From: Nitrospirota bacterium
GTDB taxonomy: Bacteria > Nitrospirota > UBA9217
NCBI GenBank assembly: GCA_963754875.1
Contig: CAVWHO010000020.1
Location: 128,001 to 192,000, forward strand
Direction of reading: 5' to 3'
Length of the DNA stretch: 64,000 nucleotides
How positions within the stretch are numbered: position 1 is the first letter of the stretch; each line of letters begins with the position of its first letter. Shown piece by piece: positions 34,027 through 51,967 of this stretch. The translations under genes and the position numbers were made by a program. The notes below the pieces were generated by a model, which was given only the letters and a program-made list of their open reading frames with translations, made no database searches and had not been told where the DNA came from.

Positions 34027-34075
34027 GGGAGGGCGTTTTTCCGCGCCTTGCACGCTCCGCTCGGTGCGACGTTGT

Positions 34076-34345
34076 TCACCTGGGAAACCTCTGAGCAGCA
34101 CGTGCCCGTGCCTTTGCAGCCTCTTCTGCACGGTTTTTCGGCGGTGCGTTCGTTTCAAGCGCGCTCAGAAGGCTTCTGGAAGCTGTTGCTATCTCGTCCA
34201 CAGCCGCAAGGAATGCAGCTTCGTTGGCCTTCGATGGCTTGTTGAAGCCGCTCACTTTTCTGACGAATTGAAGCGAGGCTGCACGAATCTCTGCGTCTGT
34301 CACGGGCGGATCGAAGTTGAAGAGAGTCCTGATGTTTCTGCACAT
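34076..34345 (-). CDS. DUF2277-family protein (cassette)
   Basis: MCRNIRTLFNFDPP..EIRAASLQFVRKVSGF. Confidence 0.85.
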   Translation of the reverse strand: MCRNIRTLFNFDPPVTDAEIRAASLQFVRKVSGFNKPSKANEAAFLAAVDEIATASRSLLSALETNAPPKNRAEEAAKARARAAQRFPR

Positions 34346-34370
34346 AAGCGTTACCTCCCTGTATCGAATT

Positions 34371-34431
34371 GCCTAACGCGCGGGCGAGAGCGTGCCTTTT
34401 TGCGCGTCGGATTCGACCCGCATCGTTATCC
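34371..34431 (-). other. attC site
   Basis: Minus strand GGATAAC gatgcgggtcgaatccgacgcgcaaaaaggcacgctctcgcccgcgc GTTAGGC. Confidence 0.8.
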
Positions 34432-34883
34432 TTTCGTAGGGAATCGACCCTCTCGATTAATTCAGCCACGATAGGATTTTTCTTGAATGGTATCAGACTG
34501 GTTGGAGGCATAAATGTAACCTCGGGGCCAATACGGGACGGATGTCGAAGCACAAGGGTTACTCTCGCTGGATTGGTTACGTAAGAATAGCTAATATTCA
34601 TAATATCCGATAACGGGATTCGTACTTCTTCATTCTTGTTTTTAACAATCAGCGCATCACCCACATCCCAAGCCTCGTCTACAAGATCAAAAACGAGTTT
34701 TTTCATTATTAAATATCCGAAGACCGTCATTACTATGGGGGTGATAAAAAATACTATTTGGAACACTCCCTTTTTAATCATGGAATATATTGAAATGACG
34801 ACAAAGAAGGCTAGGAACCCGAACCAAACTAATGGGAAAAGACGTTTATTTACAAATGTCATGCGGGAAGATATGCGACGCAT
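34425..34883 (-). CDS. Two-TM membrane protein (cassette); stop apparently lost at the attC
   Basis: RBS GAGGTGG then MRRISSRMTFVNKRLFPLVWFG; the frame reads through the attC (track ORF 34155-34976). Confidence 0.6.
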
Positions 34884-34895
34884 TTTCCACCTCGA

Positions 34896-34952
34896 GGTTA
34901 ACATCAAAATCAGCCGTGGCTGCAAGACGTCGGCTGCATTGTCTCGTTGGGC
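34896..34952 (-). other. attC site
   Basis: Minus strand GCCCAAC gagacaatgcagccgacgtcttgcagccacggctgattttgat GTTAACC. Confidence 0.8.
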
Positions 34953-35036
34953 GGTCATATGGGGTTTTGCACTCAATCACATTTCAACATTTCCAGAGTG
35001 TCCCCATCGCCTGCTCAGATTATTCAATCGCTTTAT

Positions 35037-36917
35037 CTATTTCCCCTCATGTTTCGGTGTGTTTTGAGAAATCATTTGAGATAACCATGCATTGAATAGG
35101 TTGCCGCTCGCTGAGCCCTCCCCACCTCCAACCAGAACCTGGGGCACAATCTGAATCTTACCAGCCGCTATCTCCTGAATGAGCTTGATTATCGCTACAT
35201 TCTGCTGACCAATGGCCTCTTTCTGGGCATTGTAAGCAGCGGCAACACCGTCGCCCTCAATCTTGCTTTTGTAAGAATTGCCGTCAGCCACCAGTATTGT
35301 AGCTTCTTTAGTCCCTTGAGCTTGGAGAATCACAGAACGCCTGTTCCCGTCAGCTTCTTTAACCGTGGCTTCAGCCCTATCATTATTGATGTCTATAGAT
35401 AATTTGGCATCAATAACATCTTTTTGTTTATCCGCCCGGGACGATTTCTCCATGACCGCAATGCGTTTTTCTTGAGCTAGTGCCTCTTGGTCATACTGGG
35501 CTTGCTGCTGATTGGCAATTTCCTTCTTGGTTTGCGTATCCAACAAATCTTTAGGTATATCGATATAAGCAATGAGTAAGTTTTGGGCCTCAACGTTGTA
35601 CTCAGAAAATCTTTCTTGGGCGTGTGCCAGTGCTTCGGTCTGCAAGACCGTCCGGCTTTGGAAAAAGTCAATCGCTTTCTTCTCGCCGGCTTTATTCCTG
35701 AACGATGAATCAATCAGCGGATGTACGATTTGATCAATCAGATTGGCCACTGACCCGAATCTAGCTATGATGTAGGCCGCATTCCCCGGTTGAATTCGAA
35801 TCACCATTCGAACATTGACTTCCAATTGAAAGCCATCTTTAGAAGTCACCTTCAAGGGATCAAAACTGTACAGGACCCCCGCAGCCTTAGCCACCGTTGG
35901 TTTGACTCCCTTTACCTCTGTCCCGATTTTTCCCTCGCTTGCCCAATCGATGGTGACGGCGGAAGTAGGCACTTGATAGGCTGTGAAAGCAATCGCATTT
36001 AGATTGTATTTCCCAGGTGCTATCGGCTCTCTCCAAATACCGCGAGTATATTTATCGATTATCAGTATTTTCTCAACATCTTCATGGATCGGACCACCGA
36101 GTTTTCCTTCTTTGGTAGTTAGCTCGGGCCCTACCGGCGTCCTCTCCAACTCCGACCCAACGTTGGACCTGATTACTGCCACATATCCTGGAAGGACCTC
36201 AGCTACATCTTCAACTTTAATCTCAAATAAGTTCGGATTGATGAAATATATTCCCGGTTGCAGGGTATCTAACTGCGGTCCCCGGTATCCTTTGCTATCG
36301 ATAAAGAGCTGTCCATTTTGATAAGCTCTGTGGTCTGCTTGGGTACCGTCATCATTTTGAGCCTTTGGGGCGATGACATAGCCCGTCGGTAAGGGAATAC
36401 CATCTTTAGCAACAGCGATACCAATGGTATTCTCCTCTATTTTTACCGCGGGAGCTTTGTTAATATTGAACAGTATGGAATTGATCCGGTAGGTGCCTGG
36501 ACGTAGAATCCCAATCTGCGGTCCCTTCTTTCCATGGTTGGCTAAAAACATCTCTGCATCTTGAAATTGATTGCACTCGACTTCATCGGCTAACACTCTG
36601 CCTTTAGGTAGTGGTTCGCCGTCAATAGATTCGACGATACCGATACTGGCAATGTCTACCGTCACTACCGGAACTTTGGTAAATGACCAGACTATAGGTA
36701 ACCTCCAGTAGAGCCCTGGCATCAAAGTCCTCGCCTGAACCCCTATTTCTCCATGACGCGCGATTATTTGTCCTTCAGACATTTTTTTGCCAAACATATT
36801 TTTAGTAAGGATGCCGACTTGATTGGCCCCAATTAAACAAAAACCTTTAAGGACAACCATCAGAACAATAAAAACAACCACAATTGAGACAATCCATCCT
36901 ATCATTACTGTCATCAT
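35037..36917 (-). CDS. SPFH/flotillin-like membrane protein (cassette)
   Basis: N-terminal TM; repeated G.Q..L.PG.Y motifs; SKDGFQLEVNV band-7 region; coiled-coil tail and IVPQVLVGGG. Confidence 0.85.
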   Translation of the reverse strand: MMTVMIGWIVSIVVVFIVLMVVLKGFCLIGANQVGILTKNMFGKKMSEGQIIARHGEIGVQARTLMPGLYWRLPIVWSFTKVPVVTVDIASIGIVESIDGEPLPKGRVLADEVECNQFQDAEMFLANHGKKGPQIGILRPGTYRINSILFNINKAPAVKIEENTIGIAVAKDGIPLPTGYVIAPKAQNDDGTQADHRAYQNGQLFIDSKGYRGPQLDTLQPGIYFINPNLFEIKVEDVAEVLPGYVAVIRSNVGSELERTPVGPELTTKEGKLGGPIHEDVEKILIIDKYTRGIWREPIAPGKYNLNAIAFTAYQVPTSAVTIDWASEGKIGTEVKGVKPTVAKAAGVLYSFDPLKVTSKDGFQLEVNVRMVIRIQPGNAAYIIARFGSVANLIDQIVHPLIDSSFRNKAGEKKAIDFFQSRTVLQTEALAHAQERFSEYNVEAQNLLIAYIDIPKDLLDTQTKKEIANQQQAQYDQEALAQEKRIAVMEKSSRADKQKDVIDAKLSIDINNDRAEATVKEADGNRRSVILQAQGTKEATILVADGNSYKSKIEGDGVAAAYNAQKEAIGQQNVAIIKLIQEIAAGKIQIVPQVLVGGGEGSASGNLFNAWLSQMISQNTPKHEGK

Positions 36918-36982
36918 GGTATTTCTCCTTTTTATTCTCAATGCCCTTCGGGCTTAGCGTTCTTGCTCCAGCGAGATTGAAA

Positions 36983-37041
36983 GCCTAACGAACAGGTGTA
37001 GGGCGCGATTTTCCGCGTCCCACACGACCCGCATGTTGTGA
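36983..37041 (-). other. attC site
   Basis: Minus strand TCACAAC atgcgggtcgtgtgggacgcg-gaaaat-cgcgccctacacctgttc GTTAGGC; arms pair with bulged bases. Confidence 0.85.
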
Positions 37042-37106
37042 CATCATCTCCTCATGTTCGATTTTCGCAATCGGCTCACTACCCGACCGAGCTACTGCCG
37101 GCTCTT

Positions 37107-37811
37107 TCATCGAATACCTGTATCGAACGTGAGACTGACCCGGGTCCACACATTTGGCCCTACAGACACATTCTGCGTCTGGGATTGAGGAGACAGGATG
37201 GGCGCATCAGCATCCGGCACGATTAGATAGTTCCCAGCGGGAACTTGGACTGCGAAGCAACCCTCCGAGGTCGATCGGAATGCGCCGACAGCAACGTTAT
37301 TCTTTTTGATCTGGAATCCAGCGGAAAAAGGCTCCTCGCATGATACGGTATCACTGCAAACCGGCTGTGTTGGCCCTCGCATAACGAATCCGCTCAGTCC
37401 GGCAGCAGTTTCAGGAATGATAGAGCACTGACTGGAGAGAATAGTTGAAGGGGAAGACGTGCAAATCGCGGCACTTTGAGCTGATTCAATCCCGGCCGCA
37501 TCATAAGCCGAGACGGTGTAGCAATATTGAGTCGATCCAGTGACTGAGCTATCAAGGGCAGCCGAGATTGCGACGGACTGAAGATAGAGGCCATCTCGGA
37601 ATATTTCATATCCGGTGACTTCACTATTATCGGTCGATGCCGACCAGGAAAGTCCGACTTGACCTGTCGATACAATAGCGGTCAAGTTTGAGGGGACCGT
37701 GGGCGGTGTGTTGTCCCGGTTACTGCATCTTTGAAAAATAAAGCTAATCACTATCAAAAAGAAAAACCACAAAACATACGGGATCCTATTTTTTAAACAC
37801 ATCATCTCCAT
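37107..37811 (-). CDS. Fibronectin type III domain exported protein (cassette)
   Basis: DNTPPTVPSNL..LSWSASTDNSEVTGYEIFRDG..YCYTVSAYDAAG. Confidence 0.8.
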   Translation of the reverse strand: MEMMCLKNRIPYVLWFFFLIVISFIFQRCSNRDNTPPTVPSNLTAIVSTGQVGLSWSASTDNSEVTGYEIFRDGLYLQSVAISAALDSSVTGSTQYCYTVSAYDAAGIESAQSAAICTSSPSTILSSQCSIIPETAAGLSGFVMRGPTQPVCSDTVSCEEPFSAGFQIKKNNVAVGAFRSTSEGCFAVQVPAGNYLIVPDADAPILSPQSQTQNVSVGPNVWTRVSLTFDTGIR

Positions 37812-37906
37812 TGGCCTCCTCTAAGATTGATCGGTTCCTGTCAGGCGCACTTATGAGGAGCGTTCGGCAGTTACAACGCGGCCGTGAGACGGGCGCCGTT
37901 TAAGCA

Positions 37907-38847
37907 ACCTTTAGGGTCAGGTCCTTTGTTATGGTATTAGCCCCTCATCCTCACAATGTTGCTCACTGTTGAGGTGTGGAGCCCCAGGTGTCGGGCGATT
38001 TCGCTCTGCCGATATCCATGCTTCTCAACAGCCTCGATCATCTTTCTGTCCCGCTTTCGTTTGTCCCCAAGTATACTCTCTTGGAATATTTTCTCAAGCA
38101 GCGGCCGATTCGCGTAGCGCTGACTCCTCGGTATCTCAGGAACATGCTTGTGTTTCTCCAGGTGATCTACGAGGCTGTCTACGAAATCATCTTCGCCCAG
38201 AATGATCTGCCCTTTGACGTCCGTCCAGATCGGCTTTGCCCCGATCCCCCATTTGACGAACTGGCGGTATTCTTTCTCGGCCTTGGCTCTCTTCCCGCTG
38301 AATTGCCCGAGGATCCAGTCCGTAGTGAGACAGGGGTGAGGCGTTTCTTTGCCTGCGGTTGCACGGTAACTGCTCCATTTCCACCGTTCAGGGCGTTCTA
38401 TCATCCGTGCCCGGACAGGATTTAATACAACGTATCGGCAGACTTCGAGAAGGTAGCTGTCTTTCTGGATAAGAATTCCTTTAAACCTGCCTTGGAAGAG
38501 GTGCCCCGTTCGTTGATGCCGATTGTTAAATAACTGCGTGTAAACGCCATTTAACTGTCTCATTCCAAGCGAGAGGTTCCCGTCTGGGGTTTCGATGAGC
38601 AGATGGTAGTGATTGTCCATGAGGCAGTAGGCATGGCACAGCCAGTTATAGCGCTTGCAGACGTGCTGAAGGGTGCGGAGAAAAGTTTCGCGGTCGGGGT
38701 CATCTTTGAAGACGGGCTTCTTTTCGTTGCCGCGAGTGGTAACGTGATACACGGCGCCGGGATATTCGATGCGAAGGGGTCGAGTCATGATGCGAACGTA
38801 GCATAGCCAATATAAAATGTCAACACAAAAGACCTGACCCTATAGGT
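37907..38847 (-). mobile_element. RAYT-like Y1 transposase unit 1 with 23-bp terminal inverted repeats
   Basis: acctttagggtcaggtcctttgt (37907-37929) vs acaaaagacctgaccctataggt (38825-38847), 2 mismatches. Confidence 0.75.
37937..38788 (-). CDS. REP-associated-type tyrosine (HUH/Y1) transposase with C-terminal HTH
   Basis: YHVTTRGN, LMDNHYHLL (HUH), HLFQGRF, YVVLNPVRA, WSSY. Confidence 0.9.
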   Translation of the reverse strand: MTRPLRIEYPGAVYHVTTRGNEKKPVFKDDPDRETFLRTLQHVCKRYNWLCHAYCLMDNHYHLLIETPDGNLSLGMRQLNGVYTQLFNNRHQRTGHLFQGRFKGILIQKDSYLLEVCRYVVLNPVRARMIERPERWKWSSYRATAGKETPHPCLTTDWILGQFSGKRAKAEKEYRQFVKWGIGAKPIWTDVKGQIILGEDDFVDSLVDHLEKHKHVPEIPRSQRYANRPLLEKIFQESILGDKRKRDRKMIEAVEKHGYRQSEIARHLGLHTSTVSNIVRMRG

Positions 38848-38959
38848 CCTTTTTCGCCATACGCCTCCCGTGGGTGAGGGGTTTTGATGGTTCACAGCGT
38901 CCCACACGAACCGCAGGTTGGAATCATCGTTCTGTTCTACTTCGATCAATGGAAAAAGC

Positions 38960-38989
38960 TTGACATGTTGTTACCCTTTAGGTTACAAT
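38960..38989 (+). promoter_or_regulatory. higBA promoter with overlapping operator palindrome
   Basis: TTGACA-18 nt-TACAAT; TGTTACC-cttta-GGTTACA imperfect inverted repeat. Confidence 0.65.
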
Positions 38990-38992
38990 TTA

Positions 38993-39274
38993 ATGGTGAT
39001 CGCTTCCTTTGCTCATAAAGGGCTTGAACGCTTCTACCGCACCGGAAACGTTTCAGGCATCCAGGCGATTCACGCTGCTAAACTGCGGTTAATTCTAAGC
39101 CTGCTTGACGCCGCACAAACCGTCGAGGGTATGAGGCTGCCGGCGTTAAAACTGCACAAACTGAAAGGGACGCGGAACGATACATGGGCCGTGACGGTTC
39201 AGGCAAACTGGCGGGTCACGTTCCGTTTTGAAAATGGCAATGCCCACGTTGTAAATTACGAAGATTATCATTAA
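38993..39274 (+). CDS. higB: HigB (RelE/ParE-family) toxin
   Basis: [39 protein letters not shown]. Confidence 0.9.
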
Positions 39275-39284
39275 GGAGAATCTC

Positions 39285-39575
39285 ATGGCTACAATGCATA
39301 ACCCGGCCCATCCGGGAGAAATAATAAAAGGTCTCTGTTTGGAGCCGAAAGACATGTCCGTCGCCGACGCGGCAGAGCGGCTCGGTGTTTCGCGAAAAAC
39401 ATTGTATAAGATTCTCAATGGAAAAGGCGCCGTTACGCCTGAAATGGCCCTCCGGCTTGAATTGGTCTTTGGTTCCACTGCACAAACGTGGCTCAATATG
39501 CAGACCACCTACGACTTGTGGCGGCTTAAAGACAAACGTAAGGCGCTGAAGGCCGCCTTGCGACGAGCGGCGTAG
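39285..39575 (+). CDS. higA: HigA antitoxin
   Basis: [30 protein letters not shown]. Confidence 0.9.
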
Positions 39576-39600
39576 TGTTTACACTCTCACCGGTCGATCT

Positions 39601-40040
39601 CTACACGTTTTTATGTCGAATTGGATTTTGGCCACCCATACCGACAGAGTTTCCGACGTATTCATCTCTGATATCCGACGCTACAAAGCCCTCAAACTCC
39701 CATCGTCCGTCATCCGTGACATCCTTCGCGTCGCGAGTATGGTATTTGAGAGTTCCTGAAGGATGCCATTTCTGGATGCGGTAGACTTCTCTGACGATCC
39801 CCTGAGACACAGCCATCGCGTATTCGCGTGTTCGCGCCTTGGTCCCACGACCCATATGCCGCAGGTTGCCTCATACAATTCTTCGGCAGTCATATCGCTT
39901 CGATAGAGCTTATATATCGTGATGAGAATCGCTCTATGCCGTGCATATACCGGTTTAGCGCTTAACATCGCAATAACCTCCCGTAATCCAATTCGTCCAA
40001 ATGATTTATCGTGATGACCTGCAACCCGATTAGTGAGGGA
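39601..40040 (-). pseudogene. C-terminal fragment of a LEM-3-like GIY-YIG protein, frameshifted
   Basis: LTNRVAGH..LYEATCGIW | YAMAVSQGIVREVYRI..RWEFEG..QNPI across ORFs 39681-40055 and 39601-39855; N-terminal nuclease part absent. Confidence 0.6.
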
Positions 40041-40338
40041 CCTGAAGCGCGCCACAAATGATTCTGGTCAATTTGGCAGTTACCTTAAAAAAGCAATTGC
40101 AATTAATAAACCGTAGATGCTGTAGAGAAAAGTCCAGAGTGACATAACAGTAAAAACAGCAATCTCACTGGCTATTTTTGACTTTGATGCTACTGTAAGG
40201 GCAGACATGTGTATTCTGGTGAATTCAGGCAGGCATTCGGTTTCGTTTCGGGCACGCATTCCGATTCAATTCGGGCACTCTCCAACGGGATAACCGATTG
40301 CTGGGTTAAAGCTACTATCTCATAGGGATTTTGACTTG

Positions 40339-41079
40339 TCAACGATTGATCTTTGATTTGCTCTTTCTCATTGATTCTCCTTTCAGGTCTATTTTGTAGG
40401 CGTTATGCACCAGACGGTCCATGATAGCGTCAGCCAAGGTCGGGTCGGCCAGGATATCATGCCAGTGCTTAACCGGCATTTGGGTAGTTATGAGGGTCGA
40501 CCGGCGATCATAACGGTCCTCGATGATTTCCAGAAGATCTCTTTGCTGTTCCGTCGTGAGCGGAGCAAGTCCGAAGTCGTCGAGGACAAGCAGGTCTGCC
40601 TTGAGAAGTGACTTCATCAGTTTCCGATACCGTCCGTCGTGATGCGATAGGGCCAGATCTTCAAGAAGCCTCGGCAGCCTCTGATACACGACGGCATGAC
40701 CATCACGGCAGGCTTTGTGGGACAGGGCGCAGGCAAGATAGCTCTTTCCCACGCCGGTCGGGCCGATGATAAGCAGATTGTGATGCTCGATAATCCACTG
40801 GTTCGACGCAAGCGACAGAATGAGCGATTTGTCCAGCCCTCGGGGCTGACGGAAGTCGATGTCTTCGATAGATGCTGAGATTCTCAGTTTTGCAGCTCGT
40901 AAGCGCGTAACAAGCCGTCTGTTCTCTCGTTCTGTCAGTTCTCGGTCAATAAGGAGCCCAAGCCGCTCCTCAAAGCTTAGTGAAGTCGCTTTTTGATTCT
41001 GCAGTTGTTCACGCAGGGCTTTTGCCATGCCAAAAAGACGGAGTTGTTCGATCTTGTCGAGTGTGGGATGCGCTAACAT
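40339..41079 (-). CDS. istB: IS21 helper ATPase IstB
   Basis: GPTGVGKS Walker A, LLVLDDFG Walker B, DRLVHNA. Confidence 0.95.
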   Translation of the reverse strand: MLAHPTLDKIEQLRLFGMAKALREQLQNQKATSLSFEERLGLLIDRELTERENRRLVTRLRAAKLRISASIEDIDFRQPRGLDKSLILSLASNQWIIEHHNLLIIGPTGVGKSYLACALSHKACRDGHAVVYQRLPRLLEDLALSHHDGRYRKLMKSLLKADLLVLDDFGLAPLTTEQQRDLLEIIEDRYDRRSTLITTQMPVKHWHDILADPTLADAIMDRLVHNAYKIDLKGESMRKSKSKINR

Positions 41080-41097
41080 AATAGTCTCCTTTTGCAG

Positions 41098-42639
41098 TTA
41101 GTTATAGTATTCGCTGCCACGGATGTTGCTGTGAGTGATCGCCTGTGATGCGGCTTTTGGCTCTGGTAACGGTTTTTTGTCTAAATTTGTTTCAAGGATG
41201 GACTTGACGCTTCCGAAACTGATGCCCCCGATGGCGAGTGCTCGCTTGCAGGCAGCCTCGACGCGTTCTTTGCCAAACTTCTTGGAAAGAGTGATGATCC
41301 CCATACAGGAACGAAAGCCTTGTTGTGGGTGAAGCTTCTTTGCGAGAATGGCCGTAACCAGCTCTGCCGTTGATTTGCCGGTTTCCGATGCCCAGCGTAT
41401 CAGGCGCTCTGGGGTCCAGTCAGCATAGTCCCGATGGGACTTCGGCATGTGCTCGGCAAGTGTCGTATGTCTTCCCTTGGCATAGGACCGGATATGTGAG
41501 GCGATGCGTTTGTTGTGAAAGAAGACTTCTACAATCGATTCCGTTAGCCGTACGTCCAGGTATTCATTGCGGAGTTGGTAGGGTACGCTGTAATAGTGGT
41601 CATTGACTTCGACGTGGTAATCGATGCCGGAACGTTTTTTTATCTTCCATTCTGCGTACTCGAAGGCCACAGCAGGCAGCGGTTGTAATGCAGGCTTATC
41701 GATCTCCAGAAAACGGCTCATACGGCTGCCGGAGAGCTTCTTGAAGGGCCGGTTATTGAGTCTATCCAGCAGTTCCCGGATAGCGGCATTGAGTTCTGCG
41801 AGGCTGAAGAAGGTACGGTTCCTGAGGGCTGCCAGGATCCAACGCTGCACCAGAAGGACTCCGGCTTCAACTTTCGCTTTGTCTTTAGGCTTCCTGACGC
41901 GGGCAGGAATGACCGCAGCACCGTAATGAACTGCAAGCTCTTGATAGGTGCGATTGACGCCTGGCTCATAGCGACAGACCTTGGTGATGCCGGAGAGAAG
42001 ATTATCAGGGATCAGGATCTCGGGCACACCGTCGATGAACTTAAGGGTCCGGACATGGGAACCGATCCAGTCTGGCAGACCCTGCGTAAACGTTGCTTCG
42101 GCATATGTAAAGTTGCTGGCGCCTAGGACGGCGACGAAGATCTGACAGTTGTGTACCTCTCCGGTGGATTTGTCGATTACCGAGACTGTTTGGCCACAGT
42201 AATCAACAAACAGCTTTTCTCCTGCAAGATGAACCTGTCGCATGGAGATATCGAGCTTTTTTGCATAGGCGCGATAGAGGTCACAAAAATGTGCGTACTG
42301 ATATCCTTCAGGATATTGCGCTTTGTACTCGTCCCACAGGAGCATCAGGGTAACACTTTTACGCGCAAGCTCGCGGTGAACATCCTCCCATACAGGGAGC
42401 GGACGTGGAGATGTGGAGACAATGACCGGCGGGTAGAGAAGATGCTCGAGGGCGGTATCGTCCAGGTCTGCCGGCAGGGGCCATGATAGCCCGGCCTGTC
42501 TGGCTCGTTTCGTATACTCGTCAACGGTGCTTCTGGCTATTCCACAGCTTTTGGATATAGCGCGGCGGTCTAGGCCGCAGGACCATTTGAGGCGTAAAAC
42601 TTCTTTAATTGTTCGCACGGGTATTCTTTCTCTCGTCAT
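41098..42639 (-). CDS. istA: IS21 DDE transposase IstA
   Basis: GEKLFVDYCG, IPDNL, KPKDKAKVE, YSVPY. Confidence 0.95.
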   Translation of the reverse strand: MTRERIPVRTIKEVLRLKWSCGLDRRAISKSCGIARSTVDEYTKRARQAGLSWPLPADLDDTALEHLLYPPVIVSTSPRPLPVWEDVHRELARKSVTLMLLWDEYKAQYPEGYQYAHFCDLYRAYAKKLDISMRQVHLAGEKLFVDYCGQTVSVIDKSTGEVHNCQIFVAVLGASNFTYAEATFTQGLPDWIGSHVRTLKFIDGVPEILIPDNLLSGITKVCRYEPGVNRTYQELAVHYGAAVIPARVRKPKDKAKVEAGVLLVQRWILAALRNRTFFSLAELNAAIRELLDRLNNRPFKKLSGSRMSRFLEIDKPALQPLPAVAFEYAEWKIKKRSGIDYHVEVNDHYYSVPYQLRNEYLDVRLTESIVEVFFHNKRIASHIRSYAKGRHTTLAEHMPKSHRDYADWTPERLIRWASETGKSTAELVTAILAKKLHPQQGFRSCMGIITLSKKFGKERVEAACKRALAIGGISFGSVKSILETNLDKKPLPEPKAASQAITHSNIRGSEYYN

Positions 42640-43224
42640 CCAGCTCTCCTTAGAAGCGAATTTTAAGGAGCAGGATATACGAATTTGTAGAATTTACCCA
42701 GCGTCGTTTAATGCGTTAGAGGGTGCCTGAATTGGAGCGGAACACCGGCCCGAATTGCAGTGGAATGGGTGCCTGAATTGGAGCAGAACAGGTGCCTGAA
42801 TTGCAGTGGAATGGCTGCCTGAATTGGAGCAGAATACTCAGCAGACAAACTTAAATTGATAGAAATAAACATCGTTAATATTGTAGATAGATCAAAACAC
42901 AGATAATAATTATGCTGATCGGATCGAGCGACTGGCGTATTAACCAATGATGTTAAAAAATGATATTGTCACTATCGAATAAAGAAAAGGAATTAGCGAA
43001 TGCAGTAGGTATCGTCTTCGGAGGAGTTTAATGTCCGGTTTATCCAGGATTAACAAGCTCAATGAATTGGAGGTCATCCCTTTTGATTTCAGATAATACC
43101 TTGCTAAACATTCTCTATTTAAAAGAAATCAATTGAAGGACGCCAAGAGTTATCTAAACTAACATGATCCCCAAGCATCTTTCATCCTCACTTGTCAACC
43201 AATGTGTTCTTGCCTGTGAACCAA

Positions 43225-43280
43225 AACTAACGACAGAGGGACACGCCGCGAAGCGGTCGGCGTGGAACGACGGGTTAACA
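43225..43280 (-). other. attC site
   Basis: Minus strand TGTTAAC ccgtcgttccacgccgaccgc-ttc-gcggcgtgtccctctgtc GTTAGTT. Confidence 0.8.
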
Positions 43281-43302
43281 TCATTATTAAGAAAGGCCAA
43301 GT

Positions 43303-43734
43303 TCAAAAACAACTGGCAGCATAATCAGACAGATCAACATCTGTAAAAGTAAAAACGACCGGTGTGCACGTCCCACTTACTTCAGTTTGTCTTGTACATG
43401 GATGTGTGCTCCCGATGGTCAGGCCTTTACTAAGAAGATAATTAAGCGGAGGATTTTTGCCGTCGCCGACCGTAAGTACGCGATTTTTGTCTGTTGCATC
43501 GTTTGCGTCGGCCGGATTGGCAGGTGTAAAGTCAAAGACAGCTTCGACAGGATTATTATTACAATTATTACTGCCTGTACTCGCACCGTTGAGAGAGACT
43601 ATCGTCGCTGTCCCCGTCGTGCTTGTGTAAGTACAAGGTCCACCGGTTGGATCCGAGTTGCCAGACGAACAAGAGAGAAATAAGAAGATAGACATGAAAC
43701 AGACTGCTGCTTCGACTCTGATGTTATTTGGCAT
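43303..43734 (-). CDS. Small Cys-containing lipoprotein (cassette)
   Basis: FLS-C lipobox; RBS AAGGGG right after the attC. Confidence 0.7.
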   Translation of the reverse strand: MPNNIRVEAAVCFMSIFLFLSCSSGNSDPTGGPCTYTSTTGTATIVSLNGASTGSNNCNNNPVEAVFDFTPANPADANDATDKNRVLTVGDGKNPPLNYLLSKGLTIGSTHPCTRQTEVSGTCTPVVFTFTDVDLSDYAASCF

Positions 43735-43742
43735 ATTTATCC

Positions 43743-43860
43743 CCTTAACACCCCGGGTGAGCGGCTGACACCGCAGGGGTCAAGTCCGTCTCGAACCGGT
43801 TTGATCTGCCGCGCTGGTTTCGCGGCAGATCAGGTTCGGCCGCTCACCCGTTTGTTGGCG
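43743..43860 (-). other. Long (118-bp) attC site with branched variable terminal structure
   Basis: Minus strand CGCCAAC aaacgggtgagcggc ... gccgctcacccggggt GTTAAGG; inner hairpin tgatctgccgcg/cgcggcagatca. Confidence 0.75.
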
Positions 43861-43877
43861 GCATTTTCCCGTTTATG

Positions 43878-44762
43878 CTATTTGGCTAAAAAGCGTGTAA
43901 TGAGTTCATTGACTACTTCCGGTTGTTCCTGATGAACGAAATGGCCGGCAGAAGAAATAATATGTCTTTCAAAATCACGGAGAAAAGCAGACTCCATTCC
44001 TTCAGTTGTCTCGACGCCTATGCATCCGTCATTGGCGCCATGCAGATACATTGTTGGAACGGGGATGGGATCGCTTAAGCGTTTCCGTATATCGGCCAAG
44101 CCCGGCTGATGAAGGGCCGGATTGAACTGGGAACGATAATACCCCAAAGCAGCTTTCAATACAGAAGGTTGTCGAAAAGCTTTCTTGATTTCGTTCATTA
44201 CCGATTTGGGGTAGAGCCAGCCAGGAGACCACTCTTGCCATAACCTTTCTATAAACTCGAAATCGTTATGGGCTATCGCCATCTCAGCGATGGGTAGCTG
44301 GAAGAAAAACATGTACCAGGATCGACGTTGTTGTTTTGGGTTTGATACCAGCGCTCGTCCAAAATTTGCTGCGGTCGGTACGGACATGCAGACAATTTTC
44401 GAGATTTTTTCGGGTGCAAGGATGGCAGCGCTGCGAGCAACTATGGCACCCCAATCGTGCCCGATAAGAATCGCGGGTTGTCCCGTCAGTTGATCAATCA
44501 ACGACAATACGTCTTGGGCAAGAGCTGCGACTTCATAAGGACCTTCGGACTCAACATCTGACGGAAAATATCCACGCATGTACGGAGCTACCACTCGGTA
44601 GCCTTTTTTTGCAAGGACAGGAATTTGATGCCGATAGGAAATCGGGAGATCGGGAAAGCCGTGCAATGCTACGATGAGCGGCCCCTTTCCCTCTTCGAGT
44701 GCATGGATTGTGTGACCATTCGACTCAACAGTGATGCGGTTATAAATTGGATCTTCGGCCAC
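43878..44762 (-). CDS. Epoxide-hydrolase-like alpha/beta hydrolase (cassette)
   Basis: LHGFPD, GHDWG, RRSWYMFFFQ, AGHFVHQEQP. Confidence 0.88.
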   Translation of the reverse strand: MAEDPIYNRITVESNGHTIHALEEGKGPLIVALHGFPDLPISYRHQIPVLAKKGYRVVAPYMRGYFPSDVESEGPYEVAALAQDVLSLIDQLTGQPAILIGHDWGAIVARSAAILAPEKISKIVCMSVPTAANFGRALVSNPKQQRRSWYMFFFQLPIAEMAIAHNDFEFIERLWQEWSPGWLYPKSVMNEIKKAFRQPSVLKAALGYYRSQFNPALHQPGLADIRKRLSDPIPVPTMYLHGANDGCIGVETTEGMESAFLRDFERHIISSAGHFVHQEQPEVVNELITRFLAK

Positions 44763-44835
44763 TTTATCTCCTTTTGAATGTTAAGCGGTCATATCCGCTT
44801 GGACTACTGGTTAGCGCAGTACGTTATTTTCCCTG

Positions 44836-44886
44836 AGCCAACGACGAGTTGAGCCCCGCGCCGCAGAGCGCGGGACTCGGAACAAC
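44836..44886 (-). other. Partial attC (L''-R' part) abutting RAYT-like unit 2
   Basis: Minus strand gttgttccgagtcccgcg-ctctgcgg-cgcggggctcaactcgtc GTTGGCT; the R'' box is displaced. Confidence 0.65.
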
Positions 44887-44897
44887 TTAGAAAAAAA

Positions 44898-45835
44898 CTT
44901 AGGGTCAGGTCCATACTGTTTACCTTTTATAGTGTCCGCACAGAATTCTGCTCACATATGTGGAGTGTACGCCGAGGTGATCAGCAATTGTACGCTGAGT
45001 GTATCCGTACTTCTCAACAGCCTCGGCAATTTTCCTGTCCCGTTTGCTTTTGTCGTCCAGTATACTCTGACTGAATATTTTATTAAGTGTTGGCCTGTTA
45101 GCGTAGCGTTGGCTCTTGGGGATTTCAGGAATATCTTTTTGCCTTCTGAGATGATCGGCAAGGCTGTCAACAAAATCATCTTCGCCTAGAAGGACTTGGC
45201 CCTTAACATCAGTCCAGATCGTTTTCTTGCCGATCCCCCATTTCACAAACTGGCGGTATTCTTTCTCTGCCTTGCCTCTTGTTCGGCTGAATTGTCCGAG
45301 TATCCAATCTGTGGTAAGGCACGGATGGGCCGTTTCTTTCCCCCCTGTGGCCCGGTAGCTTGACCATCTCCAGTCTTCGGGTTTTTCTACCATCCTGGCT
45401 CGGACTGGATTCAGCACCACATAGCGGCAGACTTCAAGAAGGTGTGTGTCTTTTTGGATGATGATGGCCTTGTACCTGCCCTGGAAAAGGTGTCCGGTTT
45501 TGTTGTAGCGCTTGTTCCGTGCCTGAGTATAAACGCCGTTTAATTGCCTCATGCCGAGGGAAAGATTACCGTCGGGAGTTTCTATCATGAGGTGGTAGTG
45601 ATTGTCCATGAGGCAGTAAGCGTGACAGAGCCAGTGATAGCGTTTGATGACGAAGGCAAGGATTTTGAGAAATGTCTCCCGGTCCTGGTCGTCTTTGAAT
45701 ACGGCTTTTTTATCGTTGCCCCGATTGGTGATGTGGTACACCGCGCCGGGGTATTCTATGCGTAATGGACGAGTCATAAAGGTGAGTTTAGCAGAAGTTT
45801 AAAGAAAAATCCAACAGTATGGACCTGACCCTAAG
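44898..45835 (-). mobile_element. RAYT-like Y1 transposase unit 2 with perfect 23-bp terminal inverted repeats
   Basis: cttagggtcaggtccatactgtt (44898-44920) is the exact reverse complement of aacagtatggacctgaccctaag (45813-45835). Confidence 0.8.
44920..45777 (-). CDS. REP-associated-type tyrosine (HUH/Y1) transposase, paralog of 37937-38788
   Basis: Same motifs (NHYH, YVVLNPVRA, WSSY); clearly similar but diverged from copy 1. Confidence 0.9.
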   Translation of the reverse strand: MTRPLRIEYPGAVYHITNRGNDKKAVFKDDQDRETFLKILAFVIKRYHWLCHAYCLMDNHYHLMIETPDGNLSLGMRQLNGVYTQARNKRYNKTGHLFQGRYKAIIIQKDTHLLEVCRYVVLNPVRARMVEKPEDWRWSSYRATGGKETAHPCLTTDWILGQFSRTRGKAEKEYRQFVKWGIGKKTIWTDVKGQVLLGEDDFVDSLADHLRRQKDIPEIPKSQRYANRPTLNKIFSQSILDDKSKRDRKIAEAVEKYGYTQRTIADHLGVHSTYVSRILCGHYKR

Positions 45836-45839
45836 ATGT

Positions 45840-46577
45840 TGGGACTTTCTCTACGGCAATTCAGGAGCTGTGTTGATCGACCGGTTCGGCTGCAATCCGT
45901 ACCGAATCATCGAGACCGGGTACGACACATTCGCTGCATCCATGAAACAGGCGATTCCCCGTATTCGGCGGGATACGATCACCCGGCTCTGGCAGGATTC
46001 TGAAAGCTCGATTCTGAATGAGCTGCCATCAAGCTATCGCGATGTTCTGGAAGACCAGTTCCAGGACCTGATCGCTCAGTTTCGGGACAGAGAGCATCGG
46101 AAAGAACAGATCGTGGAGCAGATGACGATTATCTTCCGAAGGCTTCGCGATGACGACCCCAGAATCCCCCCGCCGACCGCCGGGGTCATCTCGGAAAAGA
46201 ACCTTGCGCTGCTTATCGCCGAGACCGGGCCGATGGCTGATTTCCGCAATTGGCGGCAGTTGATGCGGTATGCCGGTCTCAACATCCGGATGCGTCAGAG
46301 TGGAAAGTATCAAGGCAAAAACAAAATCTCCAAGAAAGGCAGCCCGCTGCTCCGAAAGGTTTTGAACCATATCGTGCTGCCGCTGGTGCGAAAAGGCTAC
46401 CTCTACGGAGATTACTATCACAAGAAGCGAGAAACGGAAAAGATGGCGGGGACGAAGGCCATGACCATTGTGTCGCGCCACTTTCTACGTAAGTTCCACG
46501 GCTGGTACAAATCAGGTGCTGCATTTGATGAAAAACGGTATTTTGCCTGTGAGGCGGAGTTTTTGAAAGCGGCCTAA
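45840..46577 (+). pseudogene. IS110/IS1111-family recombinase, N-terminal RuvC-like (DEDD) half missing
   Basis: LIAETG..FRNWRQLMRYAGL..RQSGKYQGKNKISKKGSPLLR (C-terminal Tnp domain with SG motif); 5' end abuts the RAYT inverted repeat. Confidence 0.8.
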
Positions 46578-46619
46578 AAATGAACCAACGAACAAAGTAA
46601 TACGACTACTCCGGTGGAC

Positions 46620-46781
46620 CCTGGTCCCGAGATGACCGCTTGCGCCTTGTAATCTCTCTCGAGAGAATTATCCTGTCGACATTCCGTCACTCGGGATCAG
46701 GCGTTCCCAACATGGCCTATAAAGTATGGGTGTCCTGCAAAAGCAAGGACCGAACCCAGGTATGCTTGCCAGTTGCGGAAC
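46620..46781 (+). ncRNA. Putative bridge/seek RNA of the IS1111-type element
   Basis: Two consecutive hairpins, each with a large internal loop (46620-46701; 46703-46781), in the non-coding end downstream of the recombinase. Confidence 0.65.
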
Positions 46782-46889
46782 ATTTATCGCCAGAGACTAA
46801 GGAGAAATTATCAAAGATCAAAAGATCGAAGGAGATCTCTGTCTCTTTTTCTTGACTATTTCCGCCTAAAGGTAGGCGCAGGTTAGTTT

Positions 46890-47381
46890 TCAATCTGTAT
46901 TTGCATCTTCGTCGTCTTTAGCCTTGTGCTTAATTTTGCCTGGCATTACCCAGCCGAAAATGAAGAATTCGATTGCCATCCGAATTTTGTCGAAAAGTGA
47001 ATAACCTTTAAAAGTGTCTTCGATCGGAACGCTCGTCTTCTCGATATAATCAGACAGAAGCTCTTTGGCCTTTTCGTATTGGTCGTCTTGAACCTGTATC
47101 ATCTTTGCATTATAAAGACCAATATGGGGCCCCACTTCCAGAGAGCCAAAATTATCATTCCTCACAAAATAGCTGATTTCCTCAGAATCGAGGATGCTTC
47201 TTATTAAACTCAACTCAGTTTCGTTTTTTGGGGAATACAGGTTGACGAAATTAACATATTCTGGCGCGGATGGTGCCTCTTCTCTGCGCAGTGTCTCCTC
47301 CTCGTGAATCAAAGGCACATCACAGTCCGGGCAAGTAAGAAGCATCCATTTATATTTTTTCTTGCACCTGGGGCAAAACAT
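46890..47381 (-). CDS. DUF2007 putative signal-transducing protein with N-terminal Zn ribbon (cassette)
   Basis: MFCPRC..CPDC; LIRSILDSEEISYFV; stop followed directly by R'' AACTAAC (46882-46888). Confidence 0.8.
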   Translation of the reverse strand: MFCPRCKKKYKWMLLTCPDCDVPLIHEEETLRREEAPSAPEYVNFVNLYSPKNETELSLIRSILDSEEISYFVRNDNFGSLEVGPHIGLYNAKMIQVQDDQYEKAKELLSDYIEKTSVPIEDTFKGYSLFDKIRMAIEFFIFGWVMPGKIKHKAKDDEDANTD

Positions 47382-47394
47382 AATAACCTTTCAA

Positions 47395-47455
47395 AACTAA
47401 CGATCGCATCACGCGCCGCCATATGGGCGCGTCGCTGTGGACGCGATTGGTGTAC
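47395..47455 (-). other. attC site with degenerate R'' box
   Basis: Minus strand tacaccaatcgcgtccacagcgacgcgcc-catat-ggcggcgcgtgatgcgatc GTTAGTT. Confidence 0.65.
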
Positions 47456-47466
47456 CTTATATGTTC

Positions 47467-48678
47467 TAGTGTAGTGTCTCTCAATTAACTGGTGTTATGC
47501 CATGACTTGTGATAGAATGCTGTTCATGGCACGACACGCTTTAATTATAGACCTTACGGCGTCAGATCGACAAGAACTGGAGCAATGGGTACAAGCTCAT
47601 CGCACCCCGCAACAAGTCGCTCAACGATGTCGAATTATTCTAGCAGCAGCGAGTGGCCAACAAGACAAGGCCATCGCAAAGCGAATTCAAATCAATTATA
47701 AAACGGCCGCATTATGGAGGCAGCGGTTCTGTAGCGAAGGTCCGGACTGCCTTTGGGAAGTTGCGGCAGGTCGCGGACGTAAACCGGAGTTAACGACAAC
47801 CAAAATTAATAAAATAATTAGATGCCACTCTGCAATCAAGGCCTGCTGGCGCGACCCACTGGAGTTGCCGAACAATGGCTGAAAAGCACGGCGTCAGCAA
47901 AGCAACGATCAATAGAATATGGCAGAGCCATAACATTAAACCGCACAGAACTAAGAGCTTCAAGTTGTCCCGCGACCCACGGTTTTTGGAGAAGCTTACC
48001 GATGTAGTCGGTCTTTATCTGAATCCTCCAGCAAAAGCATTAGTGCTCTGCGTGGATGAGAAAAGCCAGATTCAAGCGCTGGATCGCACACAACCTGGGT
48101 TGCCTTTGAAAAAAGGGCGTTGTGGAACAATGACCCATGATTATAAGCGCAACGGTACCACGACGCTATTTGCGGCGCTCGAATTGGCACAAGGTAAAGT
48201 CATTGGTCAGTGTTACGCGCGGCATCGCCATCAGGAGTTTCTCAAGTTCTTGAAGCAACTGGACGCTGAGTTCCCGGTCGAAAAGCAATTGCACCTGGTG
48301 ATGGATAACTATGGAACCCATAAACATCCCAATGTCCAGAAATGGTTATCACGTCATCCACGCTTTGTGACGCACTTCGTTCCGACCAGTTCAAGTTGGT
48401 TGAATCTTGTCGAGCGTTGGTTCGGAGAACTGACGGGAAAACGATTACGTCGTGGTGTCTTTGTCAGCGTGGACGCGCTCAAGAGCGCGATCGAAGAGTA
48501 TTTGGCTACTTGGAATAAAGACCCAAAACCGTTTGTATGGACCGCAACCGTCGAATCGATTGTTAAGAAACTTGGACGCTGCAAGCAGACATTGGAGAAA
48601 ATTCAGCCAGGCTGCACGTTACCTCGCTCTCGCAAGAAAAAGGCTGATAACACCAGTCGTTTGTGAGACACTACACTA
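47467..48678 (+). mobile_element. IS630-family element; transposase 47517-48666 with a frameshift near 47820
   Basis: TIRs tagtgtagtgtctc / gagacactacacta inside CTAG flanks; [37 protein letters not shown]. Confidence 0.92.
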
Positions 48679-48692
48679 GCTTATAAATAGAA

Positions 48693-49046
48693 TCACGGCT
48701 TCACTAAAGGCCACATCCGCAGAAAGCTTCGAATAAGAAATAGTACAAACAGTAGCACAACAGAATAGCGAACGCGCCGCCAGTAACGCCAACCATCTGG
48801 GGTGAAGTTTTCTTGCCCTGCGCATAACTTCGACCAGAGAGTAATGTTCCAATATTCGTCTTGCCCCTCTGGTGATAATAATGTCATTGCTCTAAACCCC
48901 CAGTATGAGCCGAGGAGTATACTGCCCGCCATCATTAAGTCAATGATTGAAGCTGGTGGATTCCACGAAGTAATTGCGGGTATAGCTAAAATGAGACTTA
49001 CAAACAACATTCCGATGACATTCATTATTGCCACTGCTGCTCGCAT
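48693..49046 (-). CDS. Small membrane protein (cassette)
   Basis: RBS GGAG after the attC; 3 hydrophobic segments. Confidence 0.6.
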   Translation of the reverse strand: MRAAVAIMNVIGMLFVSLILAIPAITSWNPPASIIDLMMAGSILLGSYWGFRAMTLLSPEGQDEYWNITLWSKLCAGQENFTPDGWRYWRRVRYSVVLLFVLFLIRSFLRMWPLVKP

Positions 49047-49056
49047 ATTGACTCCG

Positions 49057-49114
49057 GTATAACGCGCGCGTGAGGAGCGTGGTTTTCGCGACTCACTCGA
49101 CGCGCTCGTTATGT
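49057..49114 (-). other. attC site
   Basis: Minus strand ACATAAC gagcgcgtcgagtgagtcgcgaaaaccacgctcctcacgcgcgc GTTATAC. Confidence 0.82.
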
Positions 49115-49506
49115 CATTTATGTGCCTTTAATTTCCTTAATGTGAGTGAGTATACGAGCAAGATGTTGCCGATTAAGAAACTCAAAACGCAACCACCGCC
49201 GCAAATATTGCCTAACCAATCGAGCGATGGCCATACTGAAAGAAGAAGAGCAAGACCAGCAAGGAAGGAAGGTATTATCCAGATAAAAAATAGCGATACT
49301 TTTAATAATATTTCGTTAACGAGTCTATCGTTCACAAGGAAGATGAAAAATACACTTTTTATGATAATAAATAATCCACCGAAGATCTTTAGTTTTTCAA
49401 ATACAGTTAGACCTGGAATGAAAATCAGAGAAAGGGCTATTATCGCTTCAGCAGATACCGCGATCACAGCTGATTGGTAAATTCGCTTTTTGTTATGTGT
49501 TGTCAT
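49114..49506 (-). CDS. AT-rich 4-TM membrane protein (cassette)
   Basis: Stop abuts the attC R'' box; hydrophobic. Confidence 0.6.
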   Translation of the reverse strand: MTTHNKKRIYQSAVIAVSAEAIIALSLIFIPGLTVFEKLKIFGGLFIIIKSVFFIFLVNDRLVNEILLKVSLFFIWIIPSFLAGLALLLSVWPSLDWLGNICGGGCVLSFLIGNILLVYSLTLRKLKAHK

Positions 49507-49540
49507 TGTAGCGCCTCAGGAGGCAGCGTATAGACTTTCT

Positions 49541-49599
49541 GCCCAAATAATGTTAAGGCTTCTTTCTGAACGCATTATTCAGAAAGAAGCTGGTTGGAC
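49541..49599 (-). other. attC-like terminus of the YR-IS91 element
   Basis: Minus strand GTCCAAC ca gcttctttctgaa-taatgcg-ttcagaaagaagc cttaacatta TTTGGGC (13-bp perfect stem). Confidence 0.5.
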
Positions 49600-49857
49600 T
49601 AAGCCGTAGCGCGCCACGTTGCTATGGGATTTCAAATGATTTTTCAGTTTAAAGCGAAGTCCGTGGAGGCGGCATTGGCAGGGGCATGAGACTTGTTCGA
49701 TTGAAAAGCGGCGATTCCGGACTGCTCCGCAAGCCCCTTTCGTAAATGACTATACAGGAAAAAGGGCTTTGGAGCAATAGAGTATCGTTGCGAAAAACAG
49801 GGCTGTTTTCGGGGGTGGATGTCGGGGCTGGGTTGTTCATTACAGTACTTGCGATAA

Positions 49858-50970
49858 TCATATTTGCGGCGGTCCTTTGCAGCGCGCGGGCTGCATGATC
49901 TCGATGGTACGCATTGTTCGTTCGCCGCAGGCAGGGCATTTGGCGACGTCGATGCCGGCGATCCTGAGCAGGGATTCCTGCCACGTCTCGGTTTTCTGTT
50001 CCCCCTTGTTCTGCTCGGCGCAGGCTAGAAGCTCCCTGCAGCGATCGAGTTTCTTCTTACGGCATCTGTTGCCCAACAAACCGTAGTGCCTGATCTTCAC
50101 GAACCTGTCGGGAAGGACGTGAAGCAGGAACCGCCTGATGAACTCATCGGGCTTAAGAGGCATGATTTTGGTTTTGTTGTTATCGGCGTAGTCGCGCCAC
50201 CGGAAGGAAACTTCGTCTTTATCGATCTTCACGAGCCGGTGATTGCTGATCGCGATACGGTGAGTGTACCTGCCGAGATATTCAAGAACACCCTTGGTTC
50301 CGTCGAACGGCGGCTTGCAGTAAACGACCCATTTCTTCTTGTACAGATCGGTGATCAAAGCCTTGAATGCCCCCGGCGACGCAAAATGGCTTACGGCGCC
50401 GGGGTAAATGAGTTTATTTTCGGCACGGAGCTTTTCCAGATAAGCAATAAATTTTCCCCGAAAGAGCTTCGACATCACTTTGACCGGGAGGAAGAAGTCA
50501 TTCTTGCATGACTTCCATTTCCGTCCATCACGGGACAAGCCTCCGCCGGTGACGATGTTGTGGAGGTGCGGATGGTCCATGAGATTCTGTCCCCACGTGT
50601 GTAGGATCGAGATAAACCCGATGTCAGCGCCAAGATGCTTCCGGTTTTCCGAGAGCTGGGCCAGGGTTTCTGAGGCGGACTTGAACAGGATTCCGTAGAG
50701 AACTTCCTGATTCCGGAGCACCAGAGGATTGAGAAGATCGGGGAGGGTGAAGATAACATGGAAGTACGGGATGGGAAGCAGATCTTTCTCCCGAGCCTCT
50801 ATCCACTGCTCTTTTTTGAGGAACTGGCACTTGGGACAATGCCGGTTTCTGCAGGAGTTGTACGAGATCACTTTCGTTCCGCAGTGCTCGCACTCGTCCA
50901 CGTGGCCGCCTTGGTCGGCGGTACGGCAGGTTTCAATCGCCCGCATGGCGCGAAGACGATTCAAGGGCAT
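49858..50970 (-). CDS. IS91-family (Y2 HUH) transposase with N-terminal Zn-binding domain
   Basis: CRT..GG..CEHCG..YNSCRNRHCPKCQ, LHTWGQNLMDHPHLH (HUH), YLGRY; family-like IEVADIFRRYG begins near 51027 without an in-frame ATG. Confidence 0.9.
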   Translation of the reverse strand: MPLNRLRAMRAIETCRTADQGGHVDECEHCGTKVISYNSCRNRHCPKCQFLKKEQWIEAREKDLLPIPYFHVIFTLPDLLNPLVLRNQEVLYGILFKSASETLAQLSENRKHLGADIGFISILHTWGQNLMDHPHLHNIVTGGGLSRDGRKWKSCKNDFFLPVKVMSKLFRGKFIAYLEKLRAENKLIYPGAVSHFASPGAFKALITDLYKKKWVVYCKPPFDGTKGVLEYLGRYTHRIAISNHRLVKIDKDEVSFRWRDYADNNKTKIMPLKPDEFIRRFLLHVLPDRFVKIRHYGLLGNRCRKKKLDRCRELLACAEQNKGEQKTETWQESLLRIAGIDVAKCPACGERTMRTIEIMQPARCKGPPQI

Positions 50971-51072
50971 GGGATGAGCGTTCCGGTAAAGAGGACCGTA
51001 CCGGCGAAAGATGTCCGCGACTTCGATCTGTCGGCTATCTCGCGTCTACACGGCGGGTGTCGCGTGTGCAGG

Positions 51073-51267
51073 CTACGAGGGTTGCGAAGGATTTGAGAAG
51101 GGGCCTAAGTCCAGAGGGCTCACGATTTTCGAGAGGTTCTTTTTGCTCACGTGGAGATAAATGGTGGTCGTTCTCACCGACGCATGGCCGAGCAGAAGCT
51201 GAATATAGTGCAGATCAGCTCCCGACTCCAGCAGGTGTGTGGCGAAGCTGTGGCGGCTATTCCGCAT
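51073..51267 (-). pseudogene. C-terminal stub of the tyrosine recombinase paired with the IS91 transposase
   Basis: [42 protein letters not shown]. Confidence 0.8.
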
Positions 51268-51433
51268 GCGGAATAGCCGCCATTCATTTGCCACCCACCT
51301 TTTGCAGGCCGGCTATGACCTCCGCACGATCCAGGAACTGCTCGGGCACGCCGATATCCGGACGACGATGATCTACACCCACTGCGTGCCGAGCAAAACA
51401 TTGAAAGAGATGAAGATCCCGTTGGATTTCTAG
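51266..51433 (+). pseudogene. intI: C-terminal stub of integron integrase
   Basis: [40 protein letters not shown] matches the IntI-type GYDIRT.QELLGH.DV.TTMIYTH tail; oriented away from the cassette array. Confidence 0.75.
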
Positions 51434-51967
51434 GAAGGGAACATACGACTGAAGCTTGTGAACCGCGATGGCGACAGTTTATGCCGTGCCATGACAATAA
51501 CAGGGAACAGGGTACTTTCGTGCAGAAAACGAATATGTGGTTCTCTGTGCGGGATAATGAGTAGTTGAATTTTATCATGAATCGGATTATCATTGCTTAC
51601 TATCATTCGTATCAGCATTTAACTGGAAAAACTTTTAATTGTGCATTATCAAAAACCATCAGTTAACGGCTCACGTTTTGATCGATTTCATTTCATACTG
51701 CAATGCTGTTTACGCAATCCTTACGTTTTCTTTCATTAATGAAATATTCCTTTAAAGTTATTCGTCGTTTATGCCGATAAGTTAGATGAAGTGCGCGAGG
51801 TGCTTTTGCTCGAACAGGATGATCGGACGAGGCATTCAAGATGTCTGAATTCATTGTTTCTTTGCTCAAAAAAACATCCTCTTCGGTTGACAACTAAACA
51901 AAATGATGCTTAATTCCAGTCATCTGTTTTTTTATTTATTTAAAATCAATCGAGCCGGAGGTCGTAC

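Follow-up and report, generated by a model that had tools for sequence, protein, structure and literature searches.

Recombinase-in-trio (RIT) elements are widespread and carry the genes ritABC together with terminal repeats. Passages of Van Houdt 2012 (PMC3414803) report RITs in transposase and radC genes, describe a palindromic sequence flanking ritC and judge the features of the elements not to fit usual recombinase sites. The palindromes at the ends were read as hairpin intermediates in a passage of Nielsen 2017 (PMC5737581), and parts of Janssen 2010 (PMC2864759) and of PMC8138268 treat further RIT targets and classification. According to a passage of PMC10214605, RIT transposition was not reproduced, and target specificity and empty sites are stated there to be untested. 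In the passages on RITs in PMC3414803 and PMC2864759 the palindrome is assigned no role, and neither 6-bp spacers nor a solo footprint nor an intI target is mentioned. In the literature searched, no paper described a RIT footprint standing alone; Ricker 2013 and Van Houdt 2009 lay outside that search and may describe the target or the palindrome. The strand-biased circularizing elements (SE) and Tn554, as presented in part of PMC10214605, are transposons with a tyrosine recombinase and resemble RITs in that a 6-bp spacer is carried from site to site. However, SE and Tn554 have one junction site and two end motifs, whereas RITs have an extra back-to-back arm pair and two adjacent sites.

The locus described here lies in a window of 64,000 nucleotides, the whole stretch of DNA that was analysed, from a 4.3-Mb assembly (G000) of 22 long contigs that is 90% complete. 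By sequence comparison the locus is a solo end module of a known, mechanistically unstudied element family, and it marks an integron-inactivating deletion. It shares with RIT elements the HxxRH insertion position and the palindromic module, which in those elements lies beyond one end. Unlike them it has the module only, and is a footprint, not an element. The palindrome is a RIT end module that stands alone between the tails of two recombinase genes, and it was likely left behind as RIT recombinases removed the element and, with it, the fronts of both genes. The coordinates of the features are collected in Table 1.

Table 1. Positions of the palindrome, the two gene tails and the neighboring features in the window
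Feature	Position	Strand	Basis
Last 60 codons, from RH on, of the tyrosine recombinase gene in an IS91-family element	51073..51255	-	
Perfect 32-bp palindrome: spacer 6, arm 8, centre 4, arm 8, spacer 6	51251..51282	.	
Left 6-bp spacer (putative crossover region), CCGCCA outward; overlaps RH codons of IS91-linked recombinase	51251..51256	-	
20-bp RIT terminal module: two outward-facing 8-bp arms (putative recombinase-binding sites), 4-bp centre	51257..51276	.	alignment
Right 6-bp spacer, CCGCCA	51277..51282	+	
C-terminal 51 codons (from RH) of integron integrase	51278..51433	+	
IS91-family Y2 transposase frame	49858..51045	-	PF04986, PF14319, NF033538
Right end of IS91-type element, terminal hairpin, 6-bp boundary 49551-49556	49551..49605	-	comparison with copies on C16, C21, G037
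attC-like site after first cassette ORF (49114-49506, -)	49057..49114	-	fold-based scan and inspection
Further attC-like candidates	near 43225-43280 and 34371-34431		fold-based scan and inspection
IS21 in island	40339-42639		
Two Y1/REP-type transposase genes in island	37937-38788; 44920-45777 (latter within 28-bp inverted repeats)		
IS110 fragment in island	45819-46577		
IS630 in island	47466-48679		

A perfect palindrome joining two recombinase tails had been described in a sequence-only reading of this DNA, and its presence was confirmed. It is the sole palindrome in the window with arms of at least 8 bp, its own arms being 16 bp long, and one other palindrome with 16-bp arms is found in the assembly (C17:140100). 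From base composition such a palindrome is expected by chance 1.6e-5 times per window and 1e-3 times per genome. Single-strand folding of the region gave z = -7.7, with none of 200 shuffles folding equally well. Read outward from the palindrome, both strands give the same 13 residues, and both tails match PF00589. The palindrome parses as 6 + 8 + 4 + 8 + 6, that is, a 20-bp core between two 6-bp spacers. The earlier reading had placed here a 22-bp linker of two 11-bp halves; the foreign DNA is instead the 20-bp core alone, with a 6-bp spacer on either side. Reading frames beginning MRNS were considered as selected genes and rejected as a by-product of the CATG centre, other modules having other centres.

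TIGR02249 was the best-scoring model for the tail on the plus strand, which shares 84% identity with an intact IntI on contig C13, in agreement with the tail's earlier identification as IntI. Its score of 72.9 bits, against a cut-off of 265, comes from the last 51 codons only; the intact paralogue, of 475 amino acids, passes the cut-off and could act in trans. The tail on the minus strand is, as had been supposed, that of a different tyrosine recombinase: 48 of 61 residues are identical to an intact IS91-linked recombinase in G037, and it lies directly upstream of the IS91-family transposase gene. The N-terminal halves of both genes were held to be gone, and tblastn with three queries, full-length or N-terminal, found no matching N-half in the assembly.

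The element on the left belongs to the IS91 family, having a Y2 transposase with a zinc-binding domain and a recombinase gene before the transposase gene. Its DNA is 77% identical over 1.7 kb to intact copies in G037, and both its left end and the greater part of its recombinase gene are missing. In the transposase frame the probable GTG start is followed immediately by a stop codon (51046-51048, minus strand), where the G037 homologue has Cys. Two other remnants of this kind were seen in the assembly. One, amid cassette-like DNA (C16:448438-448771), is an isolated piece of this IS91-type element's right end; in the other, a second IS91-type element (C21:200628-201992), an internal deletion fuses the recombinase and transposase frames.

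The layout is that of a normal divergent integron at the edge of an island, in which the IS91-type element separates the cassette array from intI. The cassette ORFs, on the minus strand to the left, are bounded by attC-like sites and run divergently from intI, with one strong site and two further candidates by fold scan and inspection. The island (window 34000-51550) contains cassette-like ORFs with attC-like sites and the mobile elements listed in Table 1. Its flanks are collinear in G037 and G035, and the island is absent at the same place in both. No intact orthologous integron beside the flanking gene was found in the 5 relatives examined. Integrons with a truncated intI likewise have cassette ORFs and attC-like sites on one strand and a divergent intI; here, however, the integron appears to have been inactivated by a deletion that is both precise and site-specific and lies at the integrase's catalytic HxxRH codons. 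From the layout, attI and Pc are expected to have lain within the deleted stretch and to have been lost with it. The locus itself is dead DNA.

The origin of the core was traced by a search, allowing 2 mismatches at most, of 301 genomes in the phylum. Matches were found in 8 genomes, of which only G000 and the same-genus G037, with 3 copies, had them linked to RITs. In G037 the module is found past one end of a complete ritABC element that interrupts an IS91-linked recombinase gene at HTLRH (L139), and past one end of each of two gene-less 430-bp mini-RITs (L137 and L138). The mini-RITs have both ends and the module (L137:9694-10132 and L138), and one copy lies inside a response-regulator gene. 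A fourth RIT (L175) has a variant module. The 20-mer of the window has no mismatch to the module of the mini-RIT L137 and one mismatch to those of L138, L139, L122 and L123. The usual RIT layout is N-half, 6-mer, end, ritABC, end, inverted 6-mer, 20-bp module, 6-mer, C-half, where the end consists of two 8-bp arms 9 bp apart and the module of two arms 4 bp apart. On alignment, the 32 bp in the window are exactly the 6-mer, module and 6-mer of this layout, and both flanks start at RH, the insertion position of the complete RITs in L139, L175, L165 and L176. The core of the palindrome is thus almost certainly a RIT-derived module, as judged from these alignments. The half-linker that the earlier reading would have sought does occur beside RIT ends in interrupted recombinase genes. 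A search for the 16-mer half followed by RH-S/C-FA codons gave 3 metagenome contigs, in all 3 of which the half lies within a whole palindromic core. In G037, L173 and L174 contain the same IS110, RIT and IS91-type composite with the RIT body inverted in one relative to the other; the two RIT ends thus appear interchangeable.

The module was also sought more widely. Two patterns had no match in viral contigs. A strict module pattern was absent from 201 genomes in the order of G301 and from the 5 other sequences searched, and matched 2 of 251 genomes in the phylum of G303, neither linked to a RIT. The scarcity of strict matches indicates that this module variant is rare and that the arms vary between RIT families. 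A looser pattern matched 54 of 64 family genomes and had many matches in the control too, and was uninformative. One match, L136, proved to have no module. The exact 16-mer half-palindrome, searched in one genome per species, occurs in at least 119 stretches; none of those listed precedes a recombinase tail, and they were taken as chance.

Twenty elements, RITs or mini-RITs, located in G037 or in plasmid records, were examined at both ends. These were picked from similarity matches and not at random, come from 11 of the 242 plasmid records of one search, from matches of further searches and from G037, and exclude L179 and L199, in each of which one end was not resolved. The module was present at exactly one end in 13 of the 20, on the ritC side in 8 (L139, L175, L137, L138, L165, L200, L203 and one pHG1 element) and on the ritA side in 5 (L176, L201, L202, L204 and another pHG1 element). 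In 5 others an IS91-type element splits the module from its end (L144, L172, L173, L174 and L178), one element (L180) has a module at both ends, and one (L177) has it at neither. For comparison, a loose module-like pattern arises by chance in 0.0002-0.003 of 50-bp windows in this genome. In L144 the module adjoins the C-half of a ritB gene; it had been predicted that the far RIT end, 6 kb away, would join the N-half of that gene and lack a module, and this was borne out. The partner halves on the other side of the L144 module are contiguous in a tandem IS91-type repeat (L163), a comparison that shows DNA to have been exchanged on both sides of the module. In one RIT of pHG1 the N-half at one end resembles ritB and the C-half past the module is that of ritC, gene identity being assigned by eye; these mixed halves indicate an exchange with a second target. 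In L180, a complete plasmid record, each of the two modules is joined to a different ritB C-half. In L123, a metagenome contig, a ritC tail and another recombinase tail are joined via two modules around an IS91-type element, and neither module adjoins a RIT end. Read outward, the spacers share nnGnCA (G in 38, C in 35 and A in 36 of 46), which matches the RH codons. They differ between junctions and recur between copies within one genome. The two spacers flanking a module are the same in 6 of 23 cases, compared with 17 of 506 cross pairs, values that kinship or repeated use of a target may inflate.

The core sites of tyrosine recombinases generally consist of recombinase-binding arms around a crossover region. 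On this pattern we read the arms of the module as recombinase-binding sites, and each of its two outward-facing arms would complete a core site of arm, 6-bp spacer and arm. An IS91-type element with its own recombinase gene would have sat between the cassette array and the divergent intI. One RIT would have entered one of the two recombinase genes at its HxxRH codons, either intI or, by symmetry, the IS91 recombinase gene. The inner site, formed by RIT end, spacer and module, would then have recombined with the same motif in the other gene; because that gene is divergent, the two sites point the same way and the product would be a deletion. This would remove the RIT, both N-halves and the promoter/attI region, leaving tail, spacer, module, spacer and tail. 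The N-halves lost would measure 867 bp to the IS91 left end, judged by the G037 homologue, and up to ~1.27 kb judged by the intI paralogue. The sequence-only reading had likewise invoked a RIT, targeting of HxxRH codons and an integron-inactivating deletion, and to that extent it stands. Its view of the linker as two like ends meeting centrally does not, since the whole 20-bp palindrome is already intact beyond one end of single RIT insertions, so one insertion suffices.

The route by one insertion is the most economical, and on the sequences compared we would call it about evenly balanced between right and wrong. In its favor, the core is identical to, or differs by a single base from, the modules of 3 RIT-type insertions in G037. 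Against it, all 5 split cases have an IS91-type partner at the inner site; they show that the inner site recombines, not that RitABC is the agent nor that HxxRH codons recombine there. Also against it, both spacers in the window are CCGCCA. The right one equals the 6-mer at the same position in the intact intI paralogue on C13, whereas near-identical intact relatives of the left gene in sequencing runs X1 and X4 carry a different 6-mer. Hairpin repair may have equalized the spacers, and their identity fits a copy moving from intI to the left gene at least as well. Such a move is part of an explanation by two RIT insertions, one in each divergent gene, which left one module between the tails either by excision through inner and outer sites or by homologous recombination between the copies followed by ordinary excision. 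If a copy carried the 6-mer across, the intI-type 6-mer on both sides is explained; in addition, the double-module L180 is an expected intermediate with identical spacers at the sites that would excise, L177 is of the reciprocal type, and G037 has several RIT copies in IS91-linked recombinase genes. L180 and L177, also expected from homologous recombination between RIT copies, count to that degree against one insertion. Two insertions, however, need three or more events instead of two, and no RIT copy remains in the assembly, although it is only 90% complete; we consider them a serious but less likely alternative. With G037 RitA, RitB and RitC as queries, tblastn against the assembly matched only Xer, IntI and other recombinases (23-30%). 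The RIT end, searched as two 8-bp arms 9 bp apart, had no exact match and 3 one-mismatch matches, compared with 2 for a control, and no reciprocal recombination product was found in the assembly.

The module could be RIT-derived and the second exchange at the RIT-end/module site the work of another tyrosine recombinase, IS91-linked, IntI or host Xer. The IS91-type elements that lie exactly in the inner site in 5 of 20 cases, with ends of their own resembling 6-bp-spacer sites, speak for this. Nevertheless, the crossover in the window falls on the RIT target motif within the IS91 recombinase gene and not at the IS91 ends, and the same motif is targeted by RITs in L139, L138 and L175, which makes another recombinase improbable. 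An assembler might also have jumped through the palindrome and skipped a loop of repeated RIT copies. RITs are often multicopy, and no junction-spanning read was found in the 8 of 24 listed sequencing runs searched, the best of which holds 0.23 of the sampled words. But neither RIT sequence nor an orphan N-half is present in the 22 long contigs, the flanks are collinear with the relatives, and module-joined C-halves also occur in the complete plasmid record (L180) and the metagenome contig (L123); such a collapse is very unlikely. Least probable of all, to the point of being negligible, is that hairpin-templated deletion or replication fold-back made the palindrome from the genes' own sequence. 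The region does fold strongly, and near the RH codons the two genes resemble each other; but the 20-bp core has no match in either gene and an exact counterpart in a module of another genome, and the symmetry ends precisely at the 6-bp spacer boundary. The earlier reading had listed both of these last alternatives, which the foreign core and the collinear flanks disfavor.

The preferred reading, a RIT module left by one insertion and a deletion, may be set beside the adjacent deletions and solo scars of transposons, in which an element end joins a new target in cis and the intervening DNA is deleted. Here, in contrast, the element itself is lost, the 20-bp module and not an element end marks the join, and the target is a specific codon motif. 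The scar and its relatives give the exact arms, the 6-bp spacer, the target motif and the predicted deletion product, so the mechanism of RITs can be tested with short substrates. They also point to a way in which an integron may be switched off, by a site-specific strike at the catalytic codons of its integrase. More broadly, each RIT insertion might leave a spare live site at a junction of two back-to-back sites, through which IS91-type DNA would be captured and genes with the target codons fused or deleted, so that RITs would be programmed destroyers of rival recombinases, integron integrases included. We lean slightly against this broader proposal. If the two-site model is true, the 20-bp module is a searchable signature, and the module alone a minimal 20-bp DNA adaptor.

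Several further observations concern the elements involved. Recombinase-bearing IS91-family elements sit between RIT end and module in L144, L172, L173, L174, L178, L123 and L211, and their ends there resemble recombinase sites with a 6-bp spacer and a terminal hairpin. This resemblance suggests that such IS91-type elements may integrate by a tyrosine recombinase and not only by rolling circle. In L124 (1213-1352) a RIT of another family is inserted in an IS91 transposase gene at FNSCR codons. Two tandem intact tyrosine recombinase genes in the assembly (C22:48122-50027) are not RIT-like by tblastn. The other 32-bp palindrome of the assembly (C17:140100-140131) also parses as 6 + 8 + 4 + 8 + 6, with arms TTATG/CATAA, and may represent a further RIT module, an operator or a dif-like site. 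It directly adjoins the apparent 5' end of a group II intron. The same 20-bp core is present in G003, and a form with a different centre in G030.
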